Shown here piece after piece: positions 17,254 through 57,421 of a stretch of DNA of 64,000 nucleotides. Origin of the DNA: Patescibacteria group bacterium (GTDB taxonomy: Bacteria; Patescibacteriota; Minisyncoccia; Moranbacterales; DUUL01). The notes beneath the pieces were generated by a model. It did no database searches and was not told the origin of the DNA. It saw only the letters and a list, made by a program, of their open reading frames with translations. The DNA lies in the NCBI GenBank assembly GCA_015493225.1, contig WGDO01000087.1:514-64513 (forward strand), in the 5' to 3' direction. The position numbers and the translations under genes were made by a program. Within the stretch, counting starts at the first letter, position 1. Each line of letters opens with the position of its first letter.

Positions 17254-17324
17254 GCGGGTGTCGGTTAATGGTAAACCACAGGTCTCCAAAACCTGGACTG
17301 TAGGTTCGATTCCTACCACCCGTG
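17254..17324 (+). tRNA. tRNA-Trp (anticodon CCA)
   Basis: Cloverleaf read by hand: acceptor GCGGGTG/CACCCGT (G1-U72), D arm GGTT-AATGGTA-AACC, anticodon stem CAGGT/ACCTG with loop CTCCAAA, T arm GTAGG-TTCGATT-CCTAC, discriminator G. Confidence 0.8.
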
Positions 17325-17335
17325 CAAAGCATAAA

Positions 17336-23607: not shown

Positions 23608-23692
23608 GGAGAGTTGCCAGAGCGGTCGAATGGGACACCCTGCTAAGGTGTTGTGCCTCCGGGTACCTAGGGTTCGAATCCCTAACTCTCCG
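23608..23692 (+). tRNA. tRNA-Ser (anticodon GCT)
   Basis: Acceptor GGAGAGT/ACTCTCC, anticodon stem ACACC/GGTGT with loop CTGCTAA, long variable arm, T arm GGTTCGAATCC. Confidence 0.8.
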
Positions 23693-23965
23693 CACTAAAG
23701 TTCGAATCATACAATCAATACTCATTATTCACTCGTATCATATTCTCCACATTAAAAAAATAAAAAGGGCTTGCTAAATGCAACCCTTTTTATTTTATTG
23801 TGATAATAAATCATAGATTATACCCCTATCTACCCCCTCCCCTACTCTCTATTCTCTACTCTCTACTATCTAGTGTCTAGTGTCTAATATCTAGTACCTA
23901 TCTCACCAACGCTTTTTGCTTAAGAGTAGAAAAATAGCTTGTAAAAGTATTTGAACCATAAAATC

Positions 23966-34273: not shown

Positions 34274-35695
34274 TTAATTCCTCCTCCCCCCTAATAACGC
34301 TGGGAGGGTTTTTAGAATGATTTTAATATCTCCCCAGAGAGACCAATTTTCGATGTAAAAAATATCCAAACGAACTTCATCTTCAAAGCTCAAATCACTT
34401 CGTCCAGAAACCTGAGCCATCCCGGTAATTCCTGGTTTAATAGTTAAGACTCGTTTAGCATAATCCTGATATTTTTCCACTTCCAAAGGTTGATGCGGAC
34501 GAGGACCAACTAAACTCATTTTCCCCATTAAAACATTAAAAAATTGCGGTAACTCATCAATAGAATATTTTTCCAAAAATGTTCCCACCTTCGTCTTACG
34601 AGGATCATCTTTGATTTTATACAAAGGCCCACTTTTAATAGATTGTTTTTGAATTAATTTTTTCAAATAAGACAAAGCCCGTTGATTATGCTCATCAGAA
34701 TATTGTTTACCATGACAATATTTATTTTTCATATAACGAAATTTATACAAATCAAAATTACCCTTATGCCCCACTCTTTCATTTTTAAAAATAATTGGCC
34801 AACCATCACTCAACCAAATAACCAAAGCAGACAACAACATTGGAATACCAAAAATAATAATTCCTACGCTTGCCCCCACAACGTCAAAAACTCTTTTTAA
34901 AATTTTTCCCCAACCATCCAAAGAAGTATTTTTAATTTCAATCAACGGTTCTCCTAAAAAAATTTCCACATCAAAATTAGAGGATTGCAACATTGTTGGT
35001 AAGTACTTGAAAACAATCCGATGCCTAATGCAATAATCTTTTAGCTTCAACAGCTTACCCTTATCAACCCCTGGTGTACATTCAATAATTTCATCAATCC
35101 CTTTTAATTTTTTAATTCTCTTAATTCGTTCAATATCCATATGGTCCAAATGCCCCACCACTTCATAACCCAACGAAGTATTTATATCTGTTTGTCTTTT
35201 AATATTAGCACAAAAATTATTCACCCCTATCAATAACAACCTATGTTTTCCGACACCTTTCACAGCCATTAAATACTTTTGTATTCTTCTTAGGATAATT
35301 CTACCAAAAGTCACAAAAACAAAAACTAAAATTCCTCCAACTAAAATAATAAATCGAGAAGAAAATACATCTCGATTCAAAAAGAATAAAACTATCATAA
35401 AAGTAACACCAATGGCTGTCGCCCTAAACACCTGATAAATTTGCTTCAAAATTTTGGCAGTTGTTTTTGTACGATAAAGGCCATCCAAAGCATATATAAA
35501 AACAAATAACATCCCCACAAGCAATAAACCCCTGGCATATTCTCCTTTTGGTATAATTTCTGATTGAGGCAGTGGATATTTTTCAATCATAGAAGAATAA
35601 AAACGCCAATAATAAACCGTTACCCCAGCCAATAAAACCATCATATAATCAATGGGTATTTGAAGTGCGCTAAAAAATAATTCTGATTTTTTCAT
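34274..35695 (-). CDS. Polyprenyl-phosphate hexose-1-phosphate transferase (WbaP/WcaJ-type bacterial sugar transferase)
   Basis: 5 N-terminal TM helices, a cytoplasmic linker, and the C-terminal bacterial sugar transferase domain with DELPQFFNVLMGKMSLVGPRP. Confidence 0.85.
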   Translation of the reverse strand: MKKSELFFSALQIPIDYMMVLLAGVTVYYWRFYSSMIEKYPLPQSEIIPKGEYARGLLLVGMLFVFIYALDGLYRTKTTAKILKQIYQVFRATAIGVTFMIVLFFLNRDVFSSRFIILVGGILVFVFVTFGRIILRRIQKYLMAVKGVGKHRLLLIGVNNFCANIKRQTDINTSLGYEVVGHLDHMDIERIKRIKKLKGIDEIIECTPGVDKGKLLKLKDYCIRHRIVFKYLPTMLQSSNFDVEIFLGEPLIEIKNTSLDGWGKILKRVFDVVGASVGIIIFGIPMLLSALVIWLSDGWPIIFKNERVGHKGNFDLYKFRYMKNKYCHGKQYSDEHNQRALSYLKKLIQKQSIKSGPLYKIKDDPRKTKVGTFLEKYSIDELPQFFNVLMGKMSLVGPRPHQPLEVEKYQDYAKRVLTIKPGITGMAQVSGRSDLSFEDEVRLDIFYIENWSLWGDIKIILKTLPALLGGRRN

Positions 35696-35919
35696 GACCC
35701 TACGAAACTACGAATTAACTACAAATATACGAATATACAAAATCACTCTTTTAAATCCCCTATCCACCAAGTTTTCTAGATGTTATTTTCAGACTTTGAC
35801 ACCTTCTTTAATCAACAAAGTATCAAACATCAAGTAGAAAATAACATCAAGAAAACTTGGTAAAACATTAAGAAAAAAAACCATAGATAAGTTCCACATT
35901 ACTATTAGTATACAGCATT

Positions 35920-35956
35920 CTCTCTAAAAAATAAAGACACTTGAAGTGTCTTTATT
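35920..35956 (-). terminator. Rho-independent terminator of rnpB
   Basis: Minus strand: AAAGACACUUCAAGUGUCUUU followed by AUUUUUU. Confidence 0.65.
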
Positions 35957-35958
35957 TT

Positions 35959-36382
35959 GATGACCAATCTTTAAGCCGGGTTCTGTTTAGATAATCATTT
36001 ATCTACGTTAATTATTACTAATTAACTTTAGCGGTTCAAATTCTAAATTAATAGAAAATACGACTTTACATCAGATAGGGTTTACCACTCAATCCAACCC
36101 ATACTAATGAACTGGATTTCAAACTCGCCATCACTGACAAGCGCGCCGGGTAATTCCGAAAAATACCCCGACACTTTTCACCTTTCTCCAGCTCCTGCAA
36201 GCAGGGGCTGGGTAGTATAGTCTCTGCGGCACTGTCCCTGAATAATTATTACTAATTATCCGATTGGCGTTACCAATTATCATTAAGAATTTAATCTCAC
36301 GATGCCCAGACTTTCCTCCCAGTCCTGAATTTAAAATTTTTTAATAAAAAATTTTAAATTCAGAGCTGGGTAATTATCAAAT
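35959..36382 (-). ncRNA. rnpB: RNase P RNA (bacterial type A-like)
   Basis: Minus-strand transcript contains the P4 5' strand GGAGGAAAGUCUGGGC (rc of 36306-36321), the P4 3' strand ACAGAACCCGGCUUA (rc of 35972-35986), and an AGAAAGGUGAAAAGUG...CGGGGUA...UACCCGG P10-P12-like region. A P3 hairpin and a P1 pairing UUGAU...AUCAA are present. No ORF covers this 1.1-kb gap. Confidence 0.8.
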
Positions 36383-36539
36383 CAGTCCTACCTAATATAC
36401 CAGAAAAACCCTCCTTTGTCAAGATAATTTGTACATTTCACAGAAGTTAAAGTAATCAATAGCTTATCCCAAAGTTAGTGCGGTCGTCGCAACTTTGGGA
36501 AAAATTATTGCCAATAATGTAGATTGCTGTTAAACTAAA

Positions 36540-36790
36540 ATTGGTTAATAAATCCACCCCCAACCCCTCCTTTACCAAAGGAGGGGAACCAAAGAAAATC
36601 CACCCCCAACCCCTCCTTTTTTAGCAAAGGGGAAATTTTCCACAGCTTCCACCCTTTGTAAAGGGGAGATTGAGGGGGGATTTTAAAACTAAATCCACCC
36701 CTAACCCCTCCTTTACAAAGGAGGGGAAATAAGGAAATCCGCCCCTAATCCCTCCTTTATTAAAGGAGGAGAACAAAAAGGAGAAACTAA
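36540..36790. repeat. Tandem array of 5-6 palindromic units (aaatccacccctaacccctcctttNNNaaaggaggggaa, plus the cccccctttgtaaagggggg attgagggggg variant)
   Basis: Units abut directly, each about 40-45 nt. Each is a stem-loop with a 10-bp GC-rich stem and contains an AAGGAGG Shine-Dalgarno-like core. Confidence 0.85.
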
Positions 36791-36802
36791 AAAAAATACT
36801 CT

Positions 36803-37111
36803 ATGAAATTTACTCTTCAAAACAAACTAAGTCACAACACCGAATATGTTATGCGCAAAGCCGGCTATACATATATTTTTGATAAAATTTCCCAACATGG
36901 CAGTTTTGTCCATAGACTTACCGCTGAACGCTATCCCCGTTTTCATTTATACATCACCGAAAATGAACAAGGAACTACCTTTGATCTTCATCTTGACCAA
37001 GCCAGGTCTCGCTACCAAGGACAAAAAGCTCATCGAGCTGATTATGAAAGTGAAGAAGTTAAGGCAGAGTTGGCGAGGATTTATTATGTTATTAAAGAGT
37101 TTTTAATTTAA
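36803..37111 (+). CDS. Hypothetical small protein
   Basis: 102-aa ORF immediately downstream of the repeat array. No confident family. Confidence 0.4.
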   Translation: MKFTLQNKLSHNTEYVMRKAGYTYIFDKISQHGSFVHRLTAERYPRFHLYITENEQGTTFDLHLDQARSRYQGQKAHRADYESEEVKAELARIYYVIKEFLI

Positions 37112-37374
37112 CCGGCCCCTACGAAAATATGAATTAATTTTAAATTTTAAGTTTTAAATTTTAAATGAGTTTTAAATTATCTAATTTTTAATATTAAATA
37201 TACAACCATCACAAAACAACAAGGCTCTGAATGATGCGTAAAATTAATAGAAATTAAAAACTTAAAATTCAAAATTAAATATTTAATCAAAATTCCAAAT
37301 TTTTCAAACATTGATTATTGGGATTTGTGATTTATTTGTTTCTTGAAATTTGTATCTTGGAAATTTATAAAATT

Positions 37375-37906
<532 letters not shown>

Positions 37907-38912: not shown

Positions 38913-39578
38913 TTAGAACTCTACTCCACTTTCTCTAGTATAATCCAAAATAGAAACTCCTGTCTGAATATGAGCCTCGGCACTATCCGTTGGGTCTCCA
39001 GATTGTAATCCTTTCTTATAATAAATATCCACATTTATTCTCACAAAACCACGGTGAGGATCATCACTGGAAACATCAGTATTTAAAACATTAAAAGTAC
39101 CAGAAACATCAACCTTACTACTTCCTAATATATCAGTTGCCAAAGAAGAATTAATACCATCACAATCAACTATAGCATTATAAGGACCCGCATTTTGAAT
39201 AATATTACCCGCTCCAATCTGTAGAGCATAAGATTTCACTGTCATTTTTTTATTGCTTCCATTATCAACAAACTGATAACAATATTTAGTAACTGTCAAA
39301 TTATCTATAAAAAACAAAGATTGACCATCAGGAGACACAATAACATTAGAACTAGTCCTCACCTTTTTAGCCAAGTCATCAATGGCATAACGAGCATTAT
39401 CCATTGTTTCTTGCATCGCTTGAGACTTTGTACTAGCTTTAATGGCATTCACAGAAAACATCACCACTCCACCGATAATCAAAGTAAAAATAGCCATGGC
39501 CACTACTACTTCTATTAAGGTAAATCCACCCCTACCAAAATCTTTATCTTCTTTTTTAAAAATTGAAACCTTAGTCAT
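38913..39578 (-). CDS. Prepilin-type (class III signal) pilin/pseudopilin
   Basis: GFTLIEVVVAMAIFTLIIGG cleavage/methylation motif after a short basic leader. Confidence 0.75.
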   Translation of the reverse strand: MTKVSIFKKEDKDFGRGGFTLIEVVVAMAIFTLIIGGVVMFSVNAIKASTKSQAMQETMDNARYAIDDLAKKVRTSSNVIVSPDGQSLFFIDNLTVTKYCYQFVDNGSNKKMTVKSYALQIGAGNIIQNAGPYNAIVDCDGINSSLATDILGSSKVDVSGTFNVLNTDVSSDDPHRGFVRINVDIYYKKGLQSGDPTDSAEAHIQTGVSILDYTRESGVEF

Positions 39579-39644
39579 TTAAATTATTTATATTTTAAAA
39601 TTACGGATTATACGAAAAACCATTAATTCTAGATTGCCCCCTTT

Positions 39645-39730
39645 TTAAAGGGGGCGGAAGGCTGGACAAGTTATTTTTTTTACTTTCAGTAGAAAGTTAA
39701 AAAATAGCTTGTTCAGGCTTCGGGGGTTTT
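39645..39730. repeat. Family D long hairpin element (inverted relative to 11903-11998)
   Basis: gccccctttttaaagggggcggaaggctggacaagtt...actttcagtagaaagt...agcttgttcaggcttcgggggttttt. Confidence 0.8.
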
Positions 39731-39761
39731 AAAAATCAATAGTTTTGTGTATGCCCCAAAA

Positions 39762-40358
39762 CTACCTTTCCCAATCCGTCAAAACCAAGCCCGCTTTAAC
39801 ATTTCTTTCGCCTCCATTTAAAACATCACTTTTCCAACCTACTTCACAATCCACTTTTAAACTGTCCTTGTCAGAGTTATTATCGGTATCAATCATGATA
39901 GTATTACACCTCCTTGTATATTCCGGCCCGACACAATCACTCCCAGTACAATTTGTTTCATACCTATTCGCGGTTTTGTTATATCTAATTGTTGTATTAG
40001 AAGCATTACAAGAAAAGCTATATCCTGAATCCCAACTCAACATTGGATTGCAATCAATTAAGCTATCAATGTCATTAAATGTAGTTAAATTATCCACCTC
40101 AGAATAATCCGGATTATTCGAATCACTTGGTTTCCACACCGCCCAATCCATCTCATTTTTTTCTTTTTTATTCTTAATCATCTCAATTCCCTCCTGAACC
40201 AATTCCGAAGCAATAATTTCATGTCTTCCTTCCGCATCATATTTCATCGCCTTAGCAAACAAAGCATAAACACCCACAAAAACCGTCGCCGTAATAAACA
40301 TTGTAATTACCACCTCAATTAAAGTATAACCGTTTGCGCCTGTATTTTTATTGGACAT
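39762..40358 (-). CDS. Prepilin-type pilin/pseudopilin
   Basis: NGYTLIEVVITMFI class III signal. Overlaps the next pilin gene by 11 nt. Confidence 0.7.
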   Translation of the reverse strand: MSNKNTGANGYTLIEVVITMFITATVFVGVYALFAKAMKYDAEGRHEIIASELVQEGIEMIKNKKEKNEMDWAVWKPSDSNNPDYSEVDNLTTFNDIDSLIDCNPMLSWDSGYSFSCNASNTTIRYNKTANRYETNCTGSDCVGPEYTRRCNTIMIDTDNNSDKDSLKVDCEVGWKSDVLNGGERNVKAGLVLTDWER

Positions 40359-40935
40359 TAATTTTACCCTGCTTATTAAGTATTAGACTTTTAGAATAAC
40401 CGTCTCTTGGATTTCCATTTTCATCAGTCTGATTAATAGTAATTACCACTCCACCTCCAATCACTTCCCCATAAGGAGCTCTAAAAAATATCTTTACATC
40501 ATCAGTTCCCTCTTTTTTTACGCTAAATCCATCAAAATGTCTTGTTTCATACTCCTCACATGTCGTAGTACTGCCACAAACATCAGTCAACACTTTTAAG
40601 TTTCTGCAAGTTTCAACTTTTCCATCTGTTGGAGTAACCGTGTCAATTTCCAAATTATCATAACCAATACTATTGTCATTTCTCACCACAAATCCACAAA
40701 TATGAAGAATATCTCCCGCTCCATTGGTTTTAATCGGTGGAGCTAAAGCCAAAGTCTGGGCAGTTCTAATAGTTCCTTTCACTTCCGCCGTCGCCAAAGT
40801 CAAATTTTTATTAATATCTGAAAAACGCACCAATTTTAAAGTAGCCATACTCACTATCCCAATCATTCCCATCACCACCACCATCTCAATTAGAGTAAAA
40901 CCGGCTTTTTTTAATTTTTGCTTTTCTATAATCAT
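40348..40935 (-). CDS. Prepilin-type pilin/pseudopilin
   Basis: AGFTLIEMVVVMGMIGI class III signal. Confidence 0.7.
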   Translation of the reverse strand: MIIEKQKLKKAGFTLIEMVVVMGMIGIVSMATLKLVRFSDINKNLTLATAEVKGTIRTAQTLALAPPIKTNGAGDILHICGFVVRNDNSIGYDNLEIDTVTPTDGKVETCRNLKVLTDVCGSTTTCEEYETRHFDGFSVKKEGTDDVKIFFRAPYGEVIGGGVVITINQTDENGNPRDGYSKSLILNKQGKINVQ

Positions 40936-41086
40936 CCTTTGTGTAAATTTTAAATTTTAAGTTTTAAGTTTTAAATGAGTTTTAAATGACTAATTTTTAA
41001 TACCAAATACACAACCATAAATCTTACTAAAAATTCAAAATTAATCATTCATTTAGAATTTAAAATTTAAAACTTAAAACTTTCTA

Positions 41087-41908
41087 CTATCTCATCAACC
41101 ACACCCACCCGCTCCAAACTACCTCTCCCCACAACATCAAAATAAAACCAGCCAAAATTAAAAACGGACCAAAAGGAATTTTTGTTTTAGCAGTTACCTT
41201 CTTAGTAAGCAATAAATAAACTGCCGGAACTGCTCCTAAAATATACGCTAACATCAAAAATAAATAACTCATCTTCCAGCCCACTAAAAATCCCAATAAA
41301 AATCCCAGCTTTACATCTCCGCCACCAATCCACCGTCCCCGCGATACCATAAATAAAACATAAAAAAATCCTCCCACAGCTAAACCTCCCAAAAAATTCC
41401 TAGTCAAATCCGTATTTACCGACATTAAAAAATCCGGAGAAATCAAATACCGGTATCCAAAATAAATGACCGCCAAGACTAGCCCTCCTACCACCAGCCC
41501 ATCGGGAATAATCATATAACGCAAATCCCAAATTAAAATTACCAATAACACAAAACTAATTGCCAGGTAAAAAATCGTATCAATCAACTCCCTTTGATCC
41601 AACCAGCCAAAAATAAATCCCTTTTGCCAAGCCACTAAAACAAATACTATTCCAAACAGCAATTCCGTCGCCGGATATCGCCAGGAAATCTTCTTTCCAC
41701 AATTCCGACACTCTCCTCTTAAAAAAACATAACTCAACAAAGGAATATTATCATACCAAGCAATTTTTTTTCCGCAACTATCACATTTAGACCTCCCGTT
41801 CAAACTTTTCTTATTTTGTCCCCTCTCCATCACCACCTGCCCAAAACTACCAAAAATTAAACCTAAAATAAATACTGCTATAATTTTAAATAAAATTAAT
41901 CCTATCAT
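41087..41908 (-). CDS. pilD: Prepilin peptidase (A24 family)
   Basis: N-terminal Cys4 zinc motif (CDSCGKKI...CRNCGKKI), the DiS_P_DiS region, and multi-TM A24 peptidase core with the conserved GGGDVKL. Confidence 0.85.
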   Translation of the reverse strand: MIGLILFKIIAVFILGLIFGSFGQVVMERGQNKKSLNGRSKCDSCGKKIAWYDNIPLLSYVFLRGECRNCGKKISWRYPATELLFGIVFVLVAWQKGFIFGWLDQRELIDTIFYLAISFVLLVILIWDLRYMIIPDGLVVGGLVLAVIYFGYRYLISPDFLMSVNTDLTRNFLGGLAVGGFFYVLFMVSRGRWIGGGDVKLGFLLGFLVGWKMSYLFLMLAYILGAVPAVYLLLTKKVTAKTKIPFGPFLILAGFILMLWGEVVWSGWVWLMR

Positions 41909-41919
41909 AACAACAATTT

Positions 41920-42372
41920 TTATTTAATGATAGTATTAACACCACAGCCACCACTTACCTTACCACATTTTCCACTTGTAGAATTGCAACAAACAGTTTC
42001 CATGGTATGATCTGATGGTATTGCCGAATAATACCAAGTGGAAGTAGAGAAATTTATTCCGGTAGGATAACTAAAACCATCACCATCAATTTTTGGCCAC
42101 TTTCCGTAATTCCCATTAATGCTACAAATATCATTCCCTCCAGTAGCGCCAGGTGCATTTACCGTCCCATCATCCGATTTACACAAATAAATATTCTCCA
42201 TTATTCCAGACATTTCCGTCAAAACCTTATTCACAGTCGCCCTCTTTTTTTGCACACTCAAGGAAATCATAATTGCACTAGCTAAAATACCGATAATAGC
42301 CATTACTGTCATCAACTCAATTAAAGTAAATCCCTGATTTGTCTTAAATATACTTTTATTATTTTTTTTCAT
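41920..42372 (-). CDS. Type IV pilin (prepilin-type)
   Basis: QGFTLIELMTVMAIIGILAS class III signal. Cys-containing C-terminal globular part. Confidence 0.75.
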   Translation of the reverse strand: MKKNNKSIFKTNQGFTLIELMTVMAIIGILASAIMISLSVQKKRATVNKVLTEMSGIMENIYLCKSDDGTVNAPGATGGNDICSINGNYGKWPKIDGDGFSYPTGINFSTSTWYYSAIPSDHTMETVCCNSTSGKCGKVSGGCGVNTIIK

Positions 42373-42404
42373 TTTTATATTTTTTTTAAAAATAAATACT
42401 ATGT

Positions 42405-42806
42405 CTATGGGTTACTTTTGACACACCTACTATCTGAAATATTACAGGTGACAGTATCACTCCCACAAACAATAGTAAAAGGTCCTCCATTCTTTAATGT
42501 ATTTGAATTAAAAGATCCATAAGAACATTGTTTCGGTGGAGCTGGCCAAGTACCACTACCAGTACCACAAATTAAACCTCCTCCAGTAGTAGGAGTGGGG
42601 ACACCAAATGTTCCATTTTTCAAATAACAATCCGCCGCCTCTGCTAAAATATTATTACCTAATTTCAAAGCCGCCGTAACCCTAGCCCGTTGTCGACTAG
42701 CTTTCATTCCAATAGTTATCGTTCCTGCCAAAATACCAATAATCGCCATAACTAAAAGAAGCTCAATAAGCGTAAACCCACTTGTATTATTTTTTATAAA
42801 TTTCAT
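42405..42806 (-). CDS. Type IV pilin (prepilin-type)
   Basis: SGFTLIELLLVMAIIGILAG class III signal. Confidence 0.75.
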   Translation of the reverse strand: MKFIKNNTSGFTLIELLLVMAIIGILAGTITIGMKASRQRARVTAALKLGNNILAEAADCYLKNGTFGVPTPTTGGGLICGTGSGTWPAPPKQCSYGSFNSNTLKNGGPFTIVCGSDTVTCNISDSRCVKSNP

Positions 42807-42909
42807 TTTATTATAATAATATTTATATTAATTAAAAAGTATTATTTGAGTTTTTAGAATCTAACCATTATATTATTTCGAATTCTAAAAACCCATAAAT
42901 ACCTTGTAA

Positions 42910-43458
42910 TTATCCACCAGAACCTGAACCTGAACCAGAACCTGAACCTGAACCAGAACCTGAACCTGAACCTGAACTACTAGCTTTAACCTGTGGACAA
43001 CCATCATTACTAGTACCATTAGTTTGGTTGTTATCAAATTTACAACCATTGATATCACAATAAGCATGACATATAACAGCAGTTCCACTAACTGGACAAT
43101 CATATTTTATAACAAAATCATCCGCCGTAGACTCATCAACATCAAGTGCTTCTGACAAAACCCCACCACCACCACAACTTTTAATAGGTGGTACATTGCC
43201 TATACCATAATCACCACCGCCACTAGCCTGGCAAAGCGGACCCCCCGGAGCACTCTCCAAAATAGTACCACCATTATCAACACAATCTGTTGCTGCCGCT
43301 GTTATGTCTGACATCGTTTTTTTAAAAGCAGTTACTCTAGCCTTTTTACGAGCTGGACCAATCATAATAAAAACTATCCCAGCTAAAATTCCAATAATTG
43401 CCATAACCAAAAGGAGCTCAACTAATGTAAACCCCCTTTTATTTTTTATCAATTTCAT
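42910..43458 (-). CDS. Type IV pilin with C-terminal (Ser-Gly)n tail
   Basis: RGFTLVELLLVMAIIGILAG class III signal. The C-terminus SSSGSGSGSGSGSGSGSGSGSGG is encoded by a tandem hexanucleotide repeat. Confidence 0.75.
   Translation of the reverse strand: MKLIKNKRGFTLVELLLVMAIIGILAGIVFIMIGPARKKARVTAFKKTMSDITAAATDCVDNGGTILESAPGGPLCQASGGGDYGIGNVPPIKSCGGGGVLSEALDVDESTADDFVIKYDCPVSGTAVICHAYCDINGCKFDNNQTNGTSNDGCPQVKASSSGSGSGSGSGSGSGSGSGSGG
42918..42977. repeat. Tandem hexanucleotide repeat (gaacc[ta])x10 encoding (GS)n at the pilin C-terminus
   Basis: agaacctgaacctgaaccagaacctgaacctgaaccagaacctgaacctgaacctgaact. Confidence 0.85.
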
Positions 43459-43620: not shown

Positions 43621-43882
43621 GCAAATCTCAAGATACAAGTTACAAGATACAAACAATTTTCAATAACCAAATCCCAAACTTTTCAAACATTGGTTATTGG
43701 GATTTGTGATTTGTTTGTTTCTTGGTGTTTGTATCTTGGAAATTTATAAATTTGAATCCACCTCTAACCCCTCCTTTATCCCACTACGCCATCCCACTTC
43801 GCTAAAGCTACGAGGGACAAGAGGCTATGCGGGACAAGCGCCGGAGGGGAACTACTACCTACTACCTACTACCTACTACTTA
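43621..43882. repeat. Composite: family F long palindrome plus family A unit plus (ctactacc)n
   Basis: caagatacaagttacaagatacaaacaa...ttggttattgggatttgtgatttgtttgtttcttgg... then gaatccacctctaacccctcctttatcccactacgcc...ggacaagcgccggaggggaac, then ctactacctactacctactacctactact. The last supplies the stop of pilC. Confidence 0.8.
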
Positions 43883-45084
43883 ATACTCATCGCCACCTGA
43901 TAAATCGGCAACAAAATTGCTGAAACCAATATACCAACACCTATTGCCAAAACAACCATCAAAACTGGTTCAATAAGAGTAGAAAAATTCTTTACCATTC
44001 GATCCGATTCTTTCATATAAAATTCTGTCACCTTCCCCAAGGAAAAAGACATCCGTCCTGTGTGTTCACCCACTTCCACCATTTGAGTCATCACCGGCGG
44101 AATTTCCTCATAGCGATTTAAAACTTCTGATAAATTACCACCCTTTTTAATTTCCTCTGCAGCCGTCTTCACTATATATTTATAAACATTATTACCAATA
44201 ACATCCGCCGTAATAGATAAAGCCACTGTAATTGGTAAACCACTCTGCAATAAAGTACCTAAATTTTCTGAAAATCTAGCAATATAAACATTATGTAAAA
44301 TTTTACCAACAACTGGCAGTTTTAAAACCAACTGATCAAATTGATTTTTCCCATCTTCCGTTTTTAAATAATAAACAATACCAAAAATGCCCGCTCCTAC
44401 TCCAACAATAACCGCCCACCAATAATTTACCATAAAATTACTAGTCCAAATTAAAATTTTAGTTTGCAAGGGCAAATCCTCTCCAGCCTCTGTTAAGATG
44501 TCTAAAAGCTTAGGAATAACCGTTACCATCATTAAAGAACCAACTGCTATCATTGCCGTAATAATAAAAGCAGGATAATACATTGCTCCCTTTAAACTGG
44601 AAGATAATTCATAATTTCTCTCCATACTATCAGCCAATTTATTCAAAGATTCCTGCAAAGTTCCAGACGCTTCACCAGCTTTAACCATGCTAACATAAAA
44701 ATGGGAAAAAGTATCAGGATGTTTTGACATCGCTTCTGATAATGATGAACCACCATCAATATCAAACATTATAGATTTTAATTTCAAAGCAAAAAATTTA
44801 TTATCGATCTGATTAGAGATTGATTCCAAGGCAGCCAATAAAGGAACTTTTGAGTCTATTAGAGTAGCCAATTGTCGAGAAAAAATTACAAATTCTCTAG
44901 CACCAACACCTTCCCAAAGTTTAGAAACCATCATCGTCAAACTATTGGGTCTTAACTCTTTTAATTGAATATCAGAAATTCCTGAACCCAACAACAATCT
45001 TTCCGCTGCTCGCTGAGAAATAGTTTCCACTATCCCCTTTTGAACTTTACCTTCTCGATTAACGCCTTGATATTTAAAACGCAT
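43876..45084 (-). CDS. pilC: Type IV pilus inner-membrane platform protein (GspF/PilC family)
   Basis: Two GspF repeats and three TM helices. Length 402 aa. Confidence 0.85.
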   Translation of the reverse strand: MRFKYQGVNREGKVQKGIVETISQRAAERLLLGSGISDIQLKELRPNSLTMMVSKLWEGVGAREFVIFSRQLATLIDSKVPLLAALESISNQIDNKFFALKLKSIMFDIDGGSSLSEAMSKHPDTFSHFYVSMVKAGEASGTLQESLNKLADSMERNYELSSSLKGAMYYPAFIITAMIAVGSLMMVTVIPKLLDILTEAGEDLPLQTKILIWTSNFMVNYWWAVIVGVGAGIFGIVYYLKTEDGKNQFDQLVLKLPVVGKILHNVYIARFSENLGTLLQSGLPITVALSITADVIGNNVYKYIVKTAAEEIKKGGNLSEVLNRYEEIPPVMTQMVEVGEHTGRMSFSLGKVTEFYMKESDRMVKNFSTLIEPVLMVVLAIGVGILVSAILLPIYQVAMSIK

Positions 45085-57130: not shown

Positions 57131-57153
57131 ATATTTAAATATTGGTTATTTAG

Positions 57154-57240
57154 CGGAGATGGAAGGATTCGAACCCTCGGTACCAATAAAGGTACAACGC
57201 TTTTCGAGAGCGTCCCGTTCGACCACTCCGGCACATCTCC
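57154..57240 (-). tRNA. tRNA-Ser (anticodon CGA)
   Basis: Reverse complement: GGAGATG...acceptor, anticodon stem ACGCT/AGCGT with loop CTCGAAA, long variable arm, T arm GGTTCGAATCC, discriminator G. Confidence 0.8.
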
Positions 57241-57336
57241 AGTTTTAATATACATATTTCTATTTCGCTCAAAGCGGAGAGAGCGGGATTTTCACCTCCC
57301 GTTTAGGGAGGCCGAACCCTTGTCTAACAAATGCTG

Positions 57337-57421
57337 CGGAGAGAGCGGGATTCGAACCCACGGTACCTTACGGCACACATCGTTTCCAACGATGCGCATT
57401 CGACCACTCTGCCATCTCTCC
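57337..57421 (-). tRNA. tRNA-Ser (anticodon GGA)
   Basis: Reverse complement: GGAGAGA acceptor, anticodon stem CATCG/CGATG with loop TTGGAAA, long variable arm, T arm GGTTCGAATCC. Confidence 0.8.

Follow-up and report, generated by a model that had tools for sequence, protein, structure and literature searches.

The window (the whole stretch of DNA that was analyzed, 64 kb long) carries on its minus strand, at 36389..35956, the gene for the RNA of RNase P, rnpB. A bacterial type A RNase P RNA had been called on this strand by the original prediction, which named Infernal/cmsearch as the way to check it. The check is passed: the interval is a full-length, untruncated match to RF00010 (Rfam; model positions 1-367) that scores 121.3 bits against a gathering score (GA) of 100, with E = 1.3e-36. 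In a scan with Rfam 15, it is the sole non-tRNA match in the entire window. The score lies just ~21 bits over the threshold because Rfam aligns the P13/P14 region as a deletion of P13 plus an insertion of 83 nt. The extent first proposed, 35959-36382, located the gene, but its 5' limit, 36382, loses five nucleotides of the 5' strand of P1—a helix that had itself been predicted and that pairs as listed in Table 1. The RNA is 37% G+C and folds to -140 kcal/mol, compared with -99 +/- 5 kcal/mol for shuffled sequences (z = -7.7; none of 100 shuffles was as good). The minimum free energy fold of the whole RNA mispairs J18/2 with the 3' strand of P2 and cannot show P4, and it served only for the z-score and for local hairpins.

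The gene occupies a 1.1-kb interval, 35696-36802, that had been described as free of ORF cover, and just scattered ORFs, each of 51 aa or less, are found there. Among the protein-coding calls of the public record GCA_027039935.1 (contig JALUMK010000042.1), none falls in this interval.

The sigma-70-type promoter in front of rnpB matches 11 of the 12 consensus positions and has the TG. Transcription is predicted to start ~6-8 nt beyond the -10 box, at the first bases of P1. The sequence TTGACA or TGGACA, with a -10-like box at equal distance, also precedes rnpB in the related loci L032, L034, L041, L043, L038, L045 and L046. At the other end, directly after the 3' strand of P1, stands the intrinsic terminator that had been expected there, a hairpin that runs into U's; its energy is -14.2 kcal/mol (z = -3.7), a stability that none of 200 shuffles reached. 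It was found by direct folding, though a simple consensus terminator scanner made no call in the rnpB region, probably since some of the U-run is taken up in the stem. A hairpin and U-run of different sequence lie immediately 3' of rnpB in all eight relatives examined. Since promoter and terminator recur at matching positions in the relatives, rnpB forms a transcription unit of its own.

The next gene downstream encodes a polyprenyl glycosylphosphotransferase. rnpB had been thought to be transcribed convergently toward this ‘wbaP-like’ gene, which is a misreading: the two genes share the minus strand and run in tandem, rnpB being the upstream one, and relatives keep this order. Some 10-20 nt past the rnpB terminator is a conserved TGTATACTAA motif (35905-35914, minus strand), found at the same position in L032, L033, L041 and L043; it probably serves as the -10 box of a promoter belonging to the sugar-transferase gene itself. 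On the other side of rnpB, a 102-aa ORF to which no family is assigned (36803-37111, plus strand) diverges from it. Genes for a MurC-like ligase, a NUDIX fusion and type IV pilin-like proteins also lie nearby. On the minus strand, 38913-43458 contains six or more small genes with prepilin-type N-terminal motifs (GFTLIE...; PF07963 match); one of these pilins (42910-43458) has a long (SG)n tail at its end. Together with the genes for a PilC-like protein (43876-45084) and a membrane protein that resembles a prepilin peptidase (41087-41908), they form a cluster for type IV pili or competence, such as CPR genomes typically have. Nearly all long ORFs between 28 and 44 kb are on the minus strand, and throughout the window (1-64000) the plus strand has a strong, uniformly negative GC skew, all of its 2-kb bins lying between -0.16 and -0.48.

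A dispersed repeat of ~45 nt, AAATCCACCCCTAACCCCTCCTTT-N3/4-AAAGGAGGGGAA, which includes a 10-bp hairpin, has 14 matches in the window where none is expected. The copies all appear to be intergenic, and one cluster of them separates the divergent ORF at 36803 from the promoter of rnpB. No locus of the relatives contains the exact pattern, and so the repeat looks REP/MITE-like and specific to the present genome. A 94-aa ORF (37343-37627, plus strand) that spans two of the hairpin-repeat copies, and whose translation has NPPLTPPLRKEG...NPPLAPPLKKEG, is probably not a gene.

Table 1. Positions of rnpB, its parts, its transcription signals and nearby elements in the window
Feature	Position	Strand	Description
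Polyprenyl glycosylphosphotransferase (‘wbaP-like’)	34274..35695	(-)	PF02397 Bac_transf, E 1.5e-58; neighbor, not part of rnpB
Intrinsic terminator	~35926..35958	(-)	AU-rich 14-bp hairpin with only 3 G-C pairs, into U tract
rnpB, RNase P RNA	35956..36389	(-)	434 nt as aligned by Rfam; RF00010, fold z, covariation
P1	36387-36379 paired with 35970-35962	(-)	
P4, 3' strand	35973..35980	(-)	CCCGGCUU; G 35977 = E. coli G356, wobbles with variant U
P18	36007..36026	(-)	8 bp, GUAA tetraloop; 7/8 pairs changed on both sides
P15 and single distal hairpin	36033..36065	(-)	UUCUA-UUAAUU-UAGAA; no GGU in internal loop; no separate P17
H-c	36091..36118	(-)	Extra 12-bp hairpin between P14 and P11 3' strand; subclade-specific
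H-b (P14 equivalent)	36123..36142	(-)	8 bp, GUGA tetraloop; 5/7 pairs changed on both sides; loop always GNRA
H-a (P13 equivalent)	36145..36172	(-)	Two-part helix with internal loop; in all relatives, stems covary
P12	36182..36215	(-)	Hairpin in every relative, different sequences
P8 and P9	36238..36277	(-)	P8 AUUGG/CCAAU, loop UAACG; P9 10 bp, GUAA tetraloop, 8/10 pairs changed on both sides
J5/7 hairpin	36284..36299	(-)	Local, 5 bp, UGAGA-UUAAAU-UCUUA; site of type A P6 5' strand / type B P5.1
P4, 5' strand	36305..36313	(-)	AAG(U)CUGGG; bulged U = E. coli U69; variant U 36308 = E. coli C71
P3	36318..36370	(-)	24 bp, 53 nt: 5-bp base and 19-bp AU-only extension
Promoter of rnpB	36394..36422	(-)	Sigma-70-type; -35 TTGACA 36422-36417; 17-nt spacer with TG; -10 TATATT 36399-36394
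Copies of ~45-nt repeat	29686, 36550-36775 (4-5 tandem), 37375-37459, 38794, 38839, 43754, 45259, 45303, 55607, 55701		

Relatives and the conserved core

Relatives of this RNA were reached through the loci around homologs of the transferase, 53-90% identical, whose source names are ‘Candidatus Moranbacteria’ or ‘Patescibacteria group’. Taken with the genes that surround rnpB, the pilin-like genes, the MurC-like ligase and the NUDIX fusion, these names place the window in the CPR. Of 16 related loci, 12 have an RF00010 match of 109-170 bits immediately upstream of the transferase gene. Rfam finds no rnpB upstream of that gene in loci L036/L037 and L039/L040, and hence the linkage holds only in closer relatives and in some of the distant ones. 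The alignment contains 11 sequences, 10 of them distinct, with the type A secondary structure threaded through the window sequence. For L033, which Rfam truncated at its 5' end at a very long P3 (loop of ~45 nt), the sequence was re-extracted with 100 more bases.

Among the 10 distinct sequences, 91.1% of the cells hold pairs, against 81.2 +/- 0.7% in column shuffles, none of which, out of 500, came so high; when the 3' partners are slid by 1-3 columns, just 28-45% of the cells pair. Both sides have changed in 46 of the 84 pairs; the slid controls have 8-18 such pairs. The core helices—P1, P2, P3, P5, P7, P8, P9, P10/11, P12, P15 and P18—are present, with per-helix pairing of 76-100%. Pairing is complete (100%) in P4, P5, P8 and P10, and stands at 98% in P11, 97% in P9, 96% in P7, 93% in H-b, 90% in P15 and 86% in P18. 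The universally conserved nucleotides of the core, taken as the invariant columns, are all intact in the window RNA. Some relatives (among L033, L038 and L045) carry a P19-like hairpin between the 3' strands of P2 and P4, and in the rnpB of L045 the region beyond P15 is enlarged by an insertion of ~110 nt.

P3 had been singled out as unusually long and AU-rich. Long and AU-rich it is, but its length is ordinary lineage-level variation. Long P3 hairpins, different in sequence, are found only in the window and its two closest relatives, L032 and L033, and in the other six lineages (L034, L041, L043, L038, L045 and L046) P3 measures 20-25 nt. In a helix that is known to vary, the long form is a recent extension peculiar to this clade.

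The conserved single-stranded segments of the specificity domain, J11/12 and J12/13, are both present. What had been taken for a ‘P10-12-like’ module is actually J12/13 (GGUGAAAAG) and then the P13-equivalent hairpin, H-a. L038 and L045 possess two hairpins here, with which H-a and H-b align, and so the window RNA has the P13 and P14 by which type A is recognized. The hairpin that follows them, H-c, is present with differing sequences in the window, L032, L033, L034, L041 and L043, and is absent from L038 and L045. Practically all of the sequences have GNRA tetraloops at L9, at L18 and, on H-b, at L14. In type A RNAs the tertiary contacts are L9-P1, L14-P8 and L18-P8; judged by their sequences the three loops are as expected for these contacts, which the window RNA would be predicted to make as well.

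The P4 pseudoknot and its U variant

Both strands of P4 had been recognized on the minus strand, and both are found: GGAGGAAAGUCUGGGC at RNA positions 71-86 (window 36319-36304) and ACAGAACCCGGCUUA at 404-418 (window 35986-35972). The original prediction had staked itself on the pseudoknot between them, and it forms, as a helix of 8 pairs whose strands lie ~325 nt apart and which is 100% paired in the 10 distinct homologs, with 2 covarying pairs. Set against the annotated rnpB of E. coli K-12, the 5' strand has U for C at position 71. This substitution, too, had been noticed and thought unusual; the base is real, but the relatives take away its strangeness. At pair 71/356 the sequences of the clade have C-G (4), U.G (4) or U-A (2), and the U is thus an intermediate in the ordinary, helix-preserving drift of an AT-rich lineage. 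The neighboring pair, 74/353, is G-C, G.U or A-U. These changes in the relatives also count as covariation evidence for P4.

How common the variant is elsewhere was asked of one genome per species, ~185,000 species genomes in all, with a pattern that joined the exact U-variant P4 strand to the L8 motif. It was found at 29 loci or more, in such unrelated taxa as SAR11, Paenimyroides/Flavobacterium, Moraxellaceae and Bdellovibrionales, among others, 29 being a lower bound since relatives with other L8 sequences escape the pattern. None of the 29 comes from the present lineage, and for finding relatives the scan was useless. Both strands were found at 28 of the loci, where the pair is U.G in 14 and U-A in 14. 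Cultured organisms are among the carriers—Paenimyroides, Flavobacterium, Acinetobacter parvus and Arsukibacterium—and the U.G form itself occurs in cultured Paenimyroides spp. and Flavobacterium sp. xlx-214. The U variant in P4 is rare, then, but recurrent and tolerated. The C70U change in E. coli, the subject of work by Frank and Pace in 1997, reportedly alters Ca2+/Mg2+ preference. The U71.G356 wobble is adjacent to position 70, next to a catalytic metal site, and by analogy it could conceivably alter metal binding, too.

The periphery of the catalytic domain

J5/7 is 18 nt long in the window RNA, compared with ~8 in the type A consensus, and most of it folds into the hairpin of Table 1. A hairpin of 5-6 bp is found there in 9 of 9 lineages, and its changes are compensatory: GAGA/UCUC, AAGA/UCUU, GAAAG/CUUUC, AUCAU/AUGAU and UCCAUU/AGUGGA. 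Type A RNAs are said to have no P5.1 between P5 and P7, and these have a covarying hairpin at that place; their membership of the RNase P RNA family is unaffected. P6, which with P16 and P17 marks the type A C-domain, is a pseudoknot of J5/7 with the loop of P17 (PMC5066622; PMC7191817). The best loop-loop complementarity that could form P6 amounts to 2-4 AU pairs and is matched by 12-100% of shuffles. Loop-loop pairing of the P6 or the L5.1-L15.1 kind did no better than chance, and was dropped.

Beyond J5/7, P15 has one A-C mismatch in the window where its relatives have G-C, and neither the loop beyond P15 nor J15/16 of the window RNA contains a GGU motif. A GGU in J15/16 that pairs with the 3'-CCA of the tRNA is usual in the family, though some members lack it. 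The missing GGU fits the tRNA genes, which do not encode CCA. The 3'-CCA is encoded in none of the four in the window (17254-17325, 23608-23693, 57153-57240 and 57336-57421; Trp and three Ser), each of which has a single C after the discriminator base and then diverges.

Might this be a decaying or inactive relic of rnpB, in an organism whose tRNA 5' ends are processed by another rnpB or by a protein-only RNase P (HARP or PRORP-like)? Decay might leave a modest Rfam score (121 bits against a GA of 100), a wobble in the catalytic P4 helix, a mismatch in P15, a P6 that cannot be detected and no GGU. It would not be expected to spare every one of the universally conserved core nucleotides, nor to leave promoter and terminator intact and conserved, and the compensatory changes across the relatives speak of ongoing selection for structure. 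The apparent defects, moreover, have innocent counterparts: the same U.G pair is present in cultured Paenimyroides spp. and Flavobacterium sp. xlx-214, and in the CPR it is usual for GGU and peripheral helices to be lost (PMC8172020). We consider a relic very improbable. We are, instead, highly confident that the locus is the functional rnpB, with its own promoter and terminator, of a CPR/Patescibacteria bacterium, probably one related to Moranbacteria, and that its RNA would be catalytic.

To what type does this functional RNA belong? When types A and B compete within the Rfam clan, type A is kept for 36389..35956. Like E. coli M1 and the type A model, RF00010, the RNA has P1-P5, P7-P15 and P18, the bulged U69, P4 strands that are alike bar one base, and GNRA loops at L9, L14 and L18, and it is likewise made from an independent transcription unit that ends in a terminator hairpin. 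Unlike type A, it has U.G rather than C-G at 71/356, a P3 that is ~30 nt longer, a J5/7 hairpin where type A has a strand of P6, a single hairpin for P16/P17, an extra hairpin after P14, and no GGU (G292-U294 in E. coli). As in type B (B. subtilis, RF00011), a hairpin stands between P5 and P7 where P5.1 would be, and a P6 pseudoknot is not detected; the RNA differs from type B in having no P10.1, P15.1 or P15.2, in giving no evidence of an L5.1-L15.1 contact, and in keeping P13/P14. Of the characters of type B—P5.1, P10.1, P15.1, P15.2 and the lack of P13/P14—it displays only a P5.1-like hairpin. The periphery of the C-domain is atypical by textbook A-type criteria, then; the core, the S-domain and the Rfam assignment are type A.

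Departures of this sort have been described in the CPR. The RNase P RNAs surveyed by Lui, Nielsen and Arkin (2021) have large helix extensions and have often lost P13, P14, P16 and P17; in 23 of 35 CPR genomes no CCA-binding motif is present, and some of the RNAs score below Rfam thresholds (PMC8172020). The window RNA comes from the same radiation and resembles these diverged forms in its helix extension, its loss of elements of the P16/P17 type, its loss of the CCA motif, its low RF00010 score and its need of manual refolding. It differs from them in passing the gathering score and in keeping P12, P13, P14, P15 and P18. It is a mild example of the CPR pattern, among the less diverged CPR forms. 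Cyanobacterial and plastid RNAs, as they are cited in PMC8172020, also have a loop beyond P15 that lacks the CCA-pairing motif, and tRNA genes without CCA, but their lineage is unrelated and their peripheral helices are different. A literature search that joined RNase P RNA with the name Patescibacteria returned no paper.

A bolder view would make these RNAs a distinct architectural class, in which a type A S-domain, with P13/P14, is combined with a C-domain that has a P5.1-like hairpin in place of P6, P16 and P17—convergence of the kind represented by the Thermomicrobium C-type. The presence of P6, P16 and P17 and the absence of P5.1 are the very characters that define the A-type (PMC7191817; PMC5066622), and here a covarying hairpin occupies the P5.1 position in 9 of 9 lineages, one hairpin stands beyond P15, and P6 complementarity is no better than chance. 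That hairpin is just 5 bp long, however; P10.1, P15.1 and P15.2 do not accompany it, no contact of the L5.1-L15.1 type is demonstrable, and Rfam clan competition leads to type A. Lui et al., moreover, count CPR RNAs without P16/P17 as diverged type A (PMC8172020). A separate class strikes us as possible and rather unlikely, and it would refine, not replace, the explanation we prefer, a functional rnpB. On a similarly tentative footing, a Moranbacteria-like clade may have swapped its P6/P16/P17 module for a P5.1-like hairpin and one hairpin beyond P15, and added a hairpin after P14, with U71.G356 perhaps altering metal binding. If true, this swap would be a third case in which the RNase P periphery was independently re-engineered, type B and the C-type of Chloroflexi being the earlier two.

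Proposed function and significance

RNase P, an almost universal enzyme, trims tRNA precursors at their 5' ends, and the RNA encoded by rnpB is its catalytic component. The window RNA has the canonical catalytic core: P1-P5, the P4 pseudoknot with its bulged U, P7-P12, P15 and P18. Together with RnpA, presumably encoded elsewhere, it would be expected to cut the 5' leaders off pre-tRNAs. Its S-domain (P7-P14, with J11/12 and J12/13) would bind the elbow of the pre-tRNA, formed by T-arm and D-loop, and its C-domain would bring the cleavage site to P4, with hydrolysis catalyzed there by Mg2+ ions; RnpA, for its part, would bind the 5' leader. Lacking GGU, the enzyme may be independent of pairing with the 3'-CCA, which in the present organism would be added after transcription. 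A simple search for the RNR motif, a weak test, found no RnpA in the 64-kb window; its gene is normally elsewhere.

This rnpB, then, is a genuine, ordinary housekeeping gene of a known family, and the structural variation that it displays is of the lineage-level kind already described for the CPR. It leaves what is known of RNase P unchanged. Its main value lies in annotation, rnpB being essential and often left unannotated: the annotation rate is 24% in complete genomes (PMC7191817), and Lui et al. have used the presence of rnpB as a check on the completeness of CPR genomes (PMC8172020). The locus is a clean, well-delimited example of the gene, with promoter, terminator and conserved synteny, and the small alignment of its relatives could serve to sharpen covariance models for the CPR.
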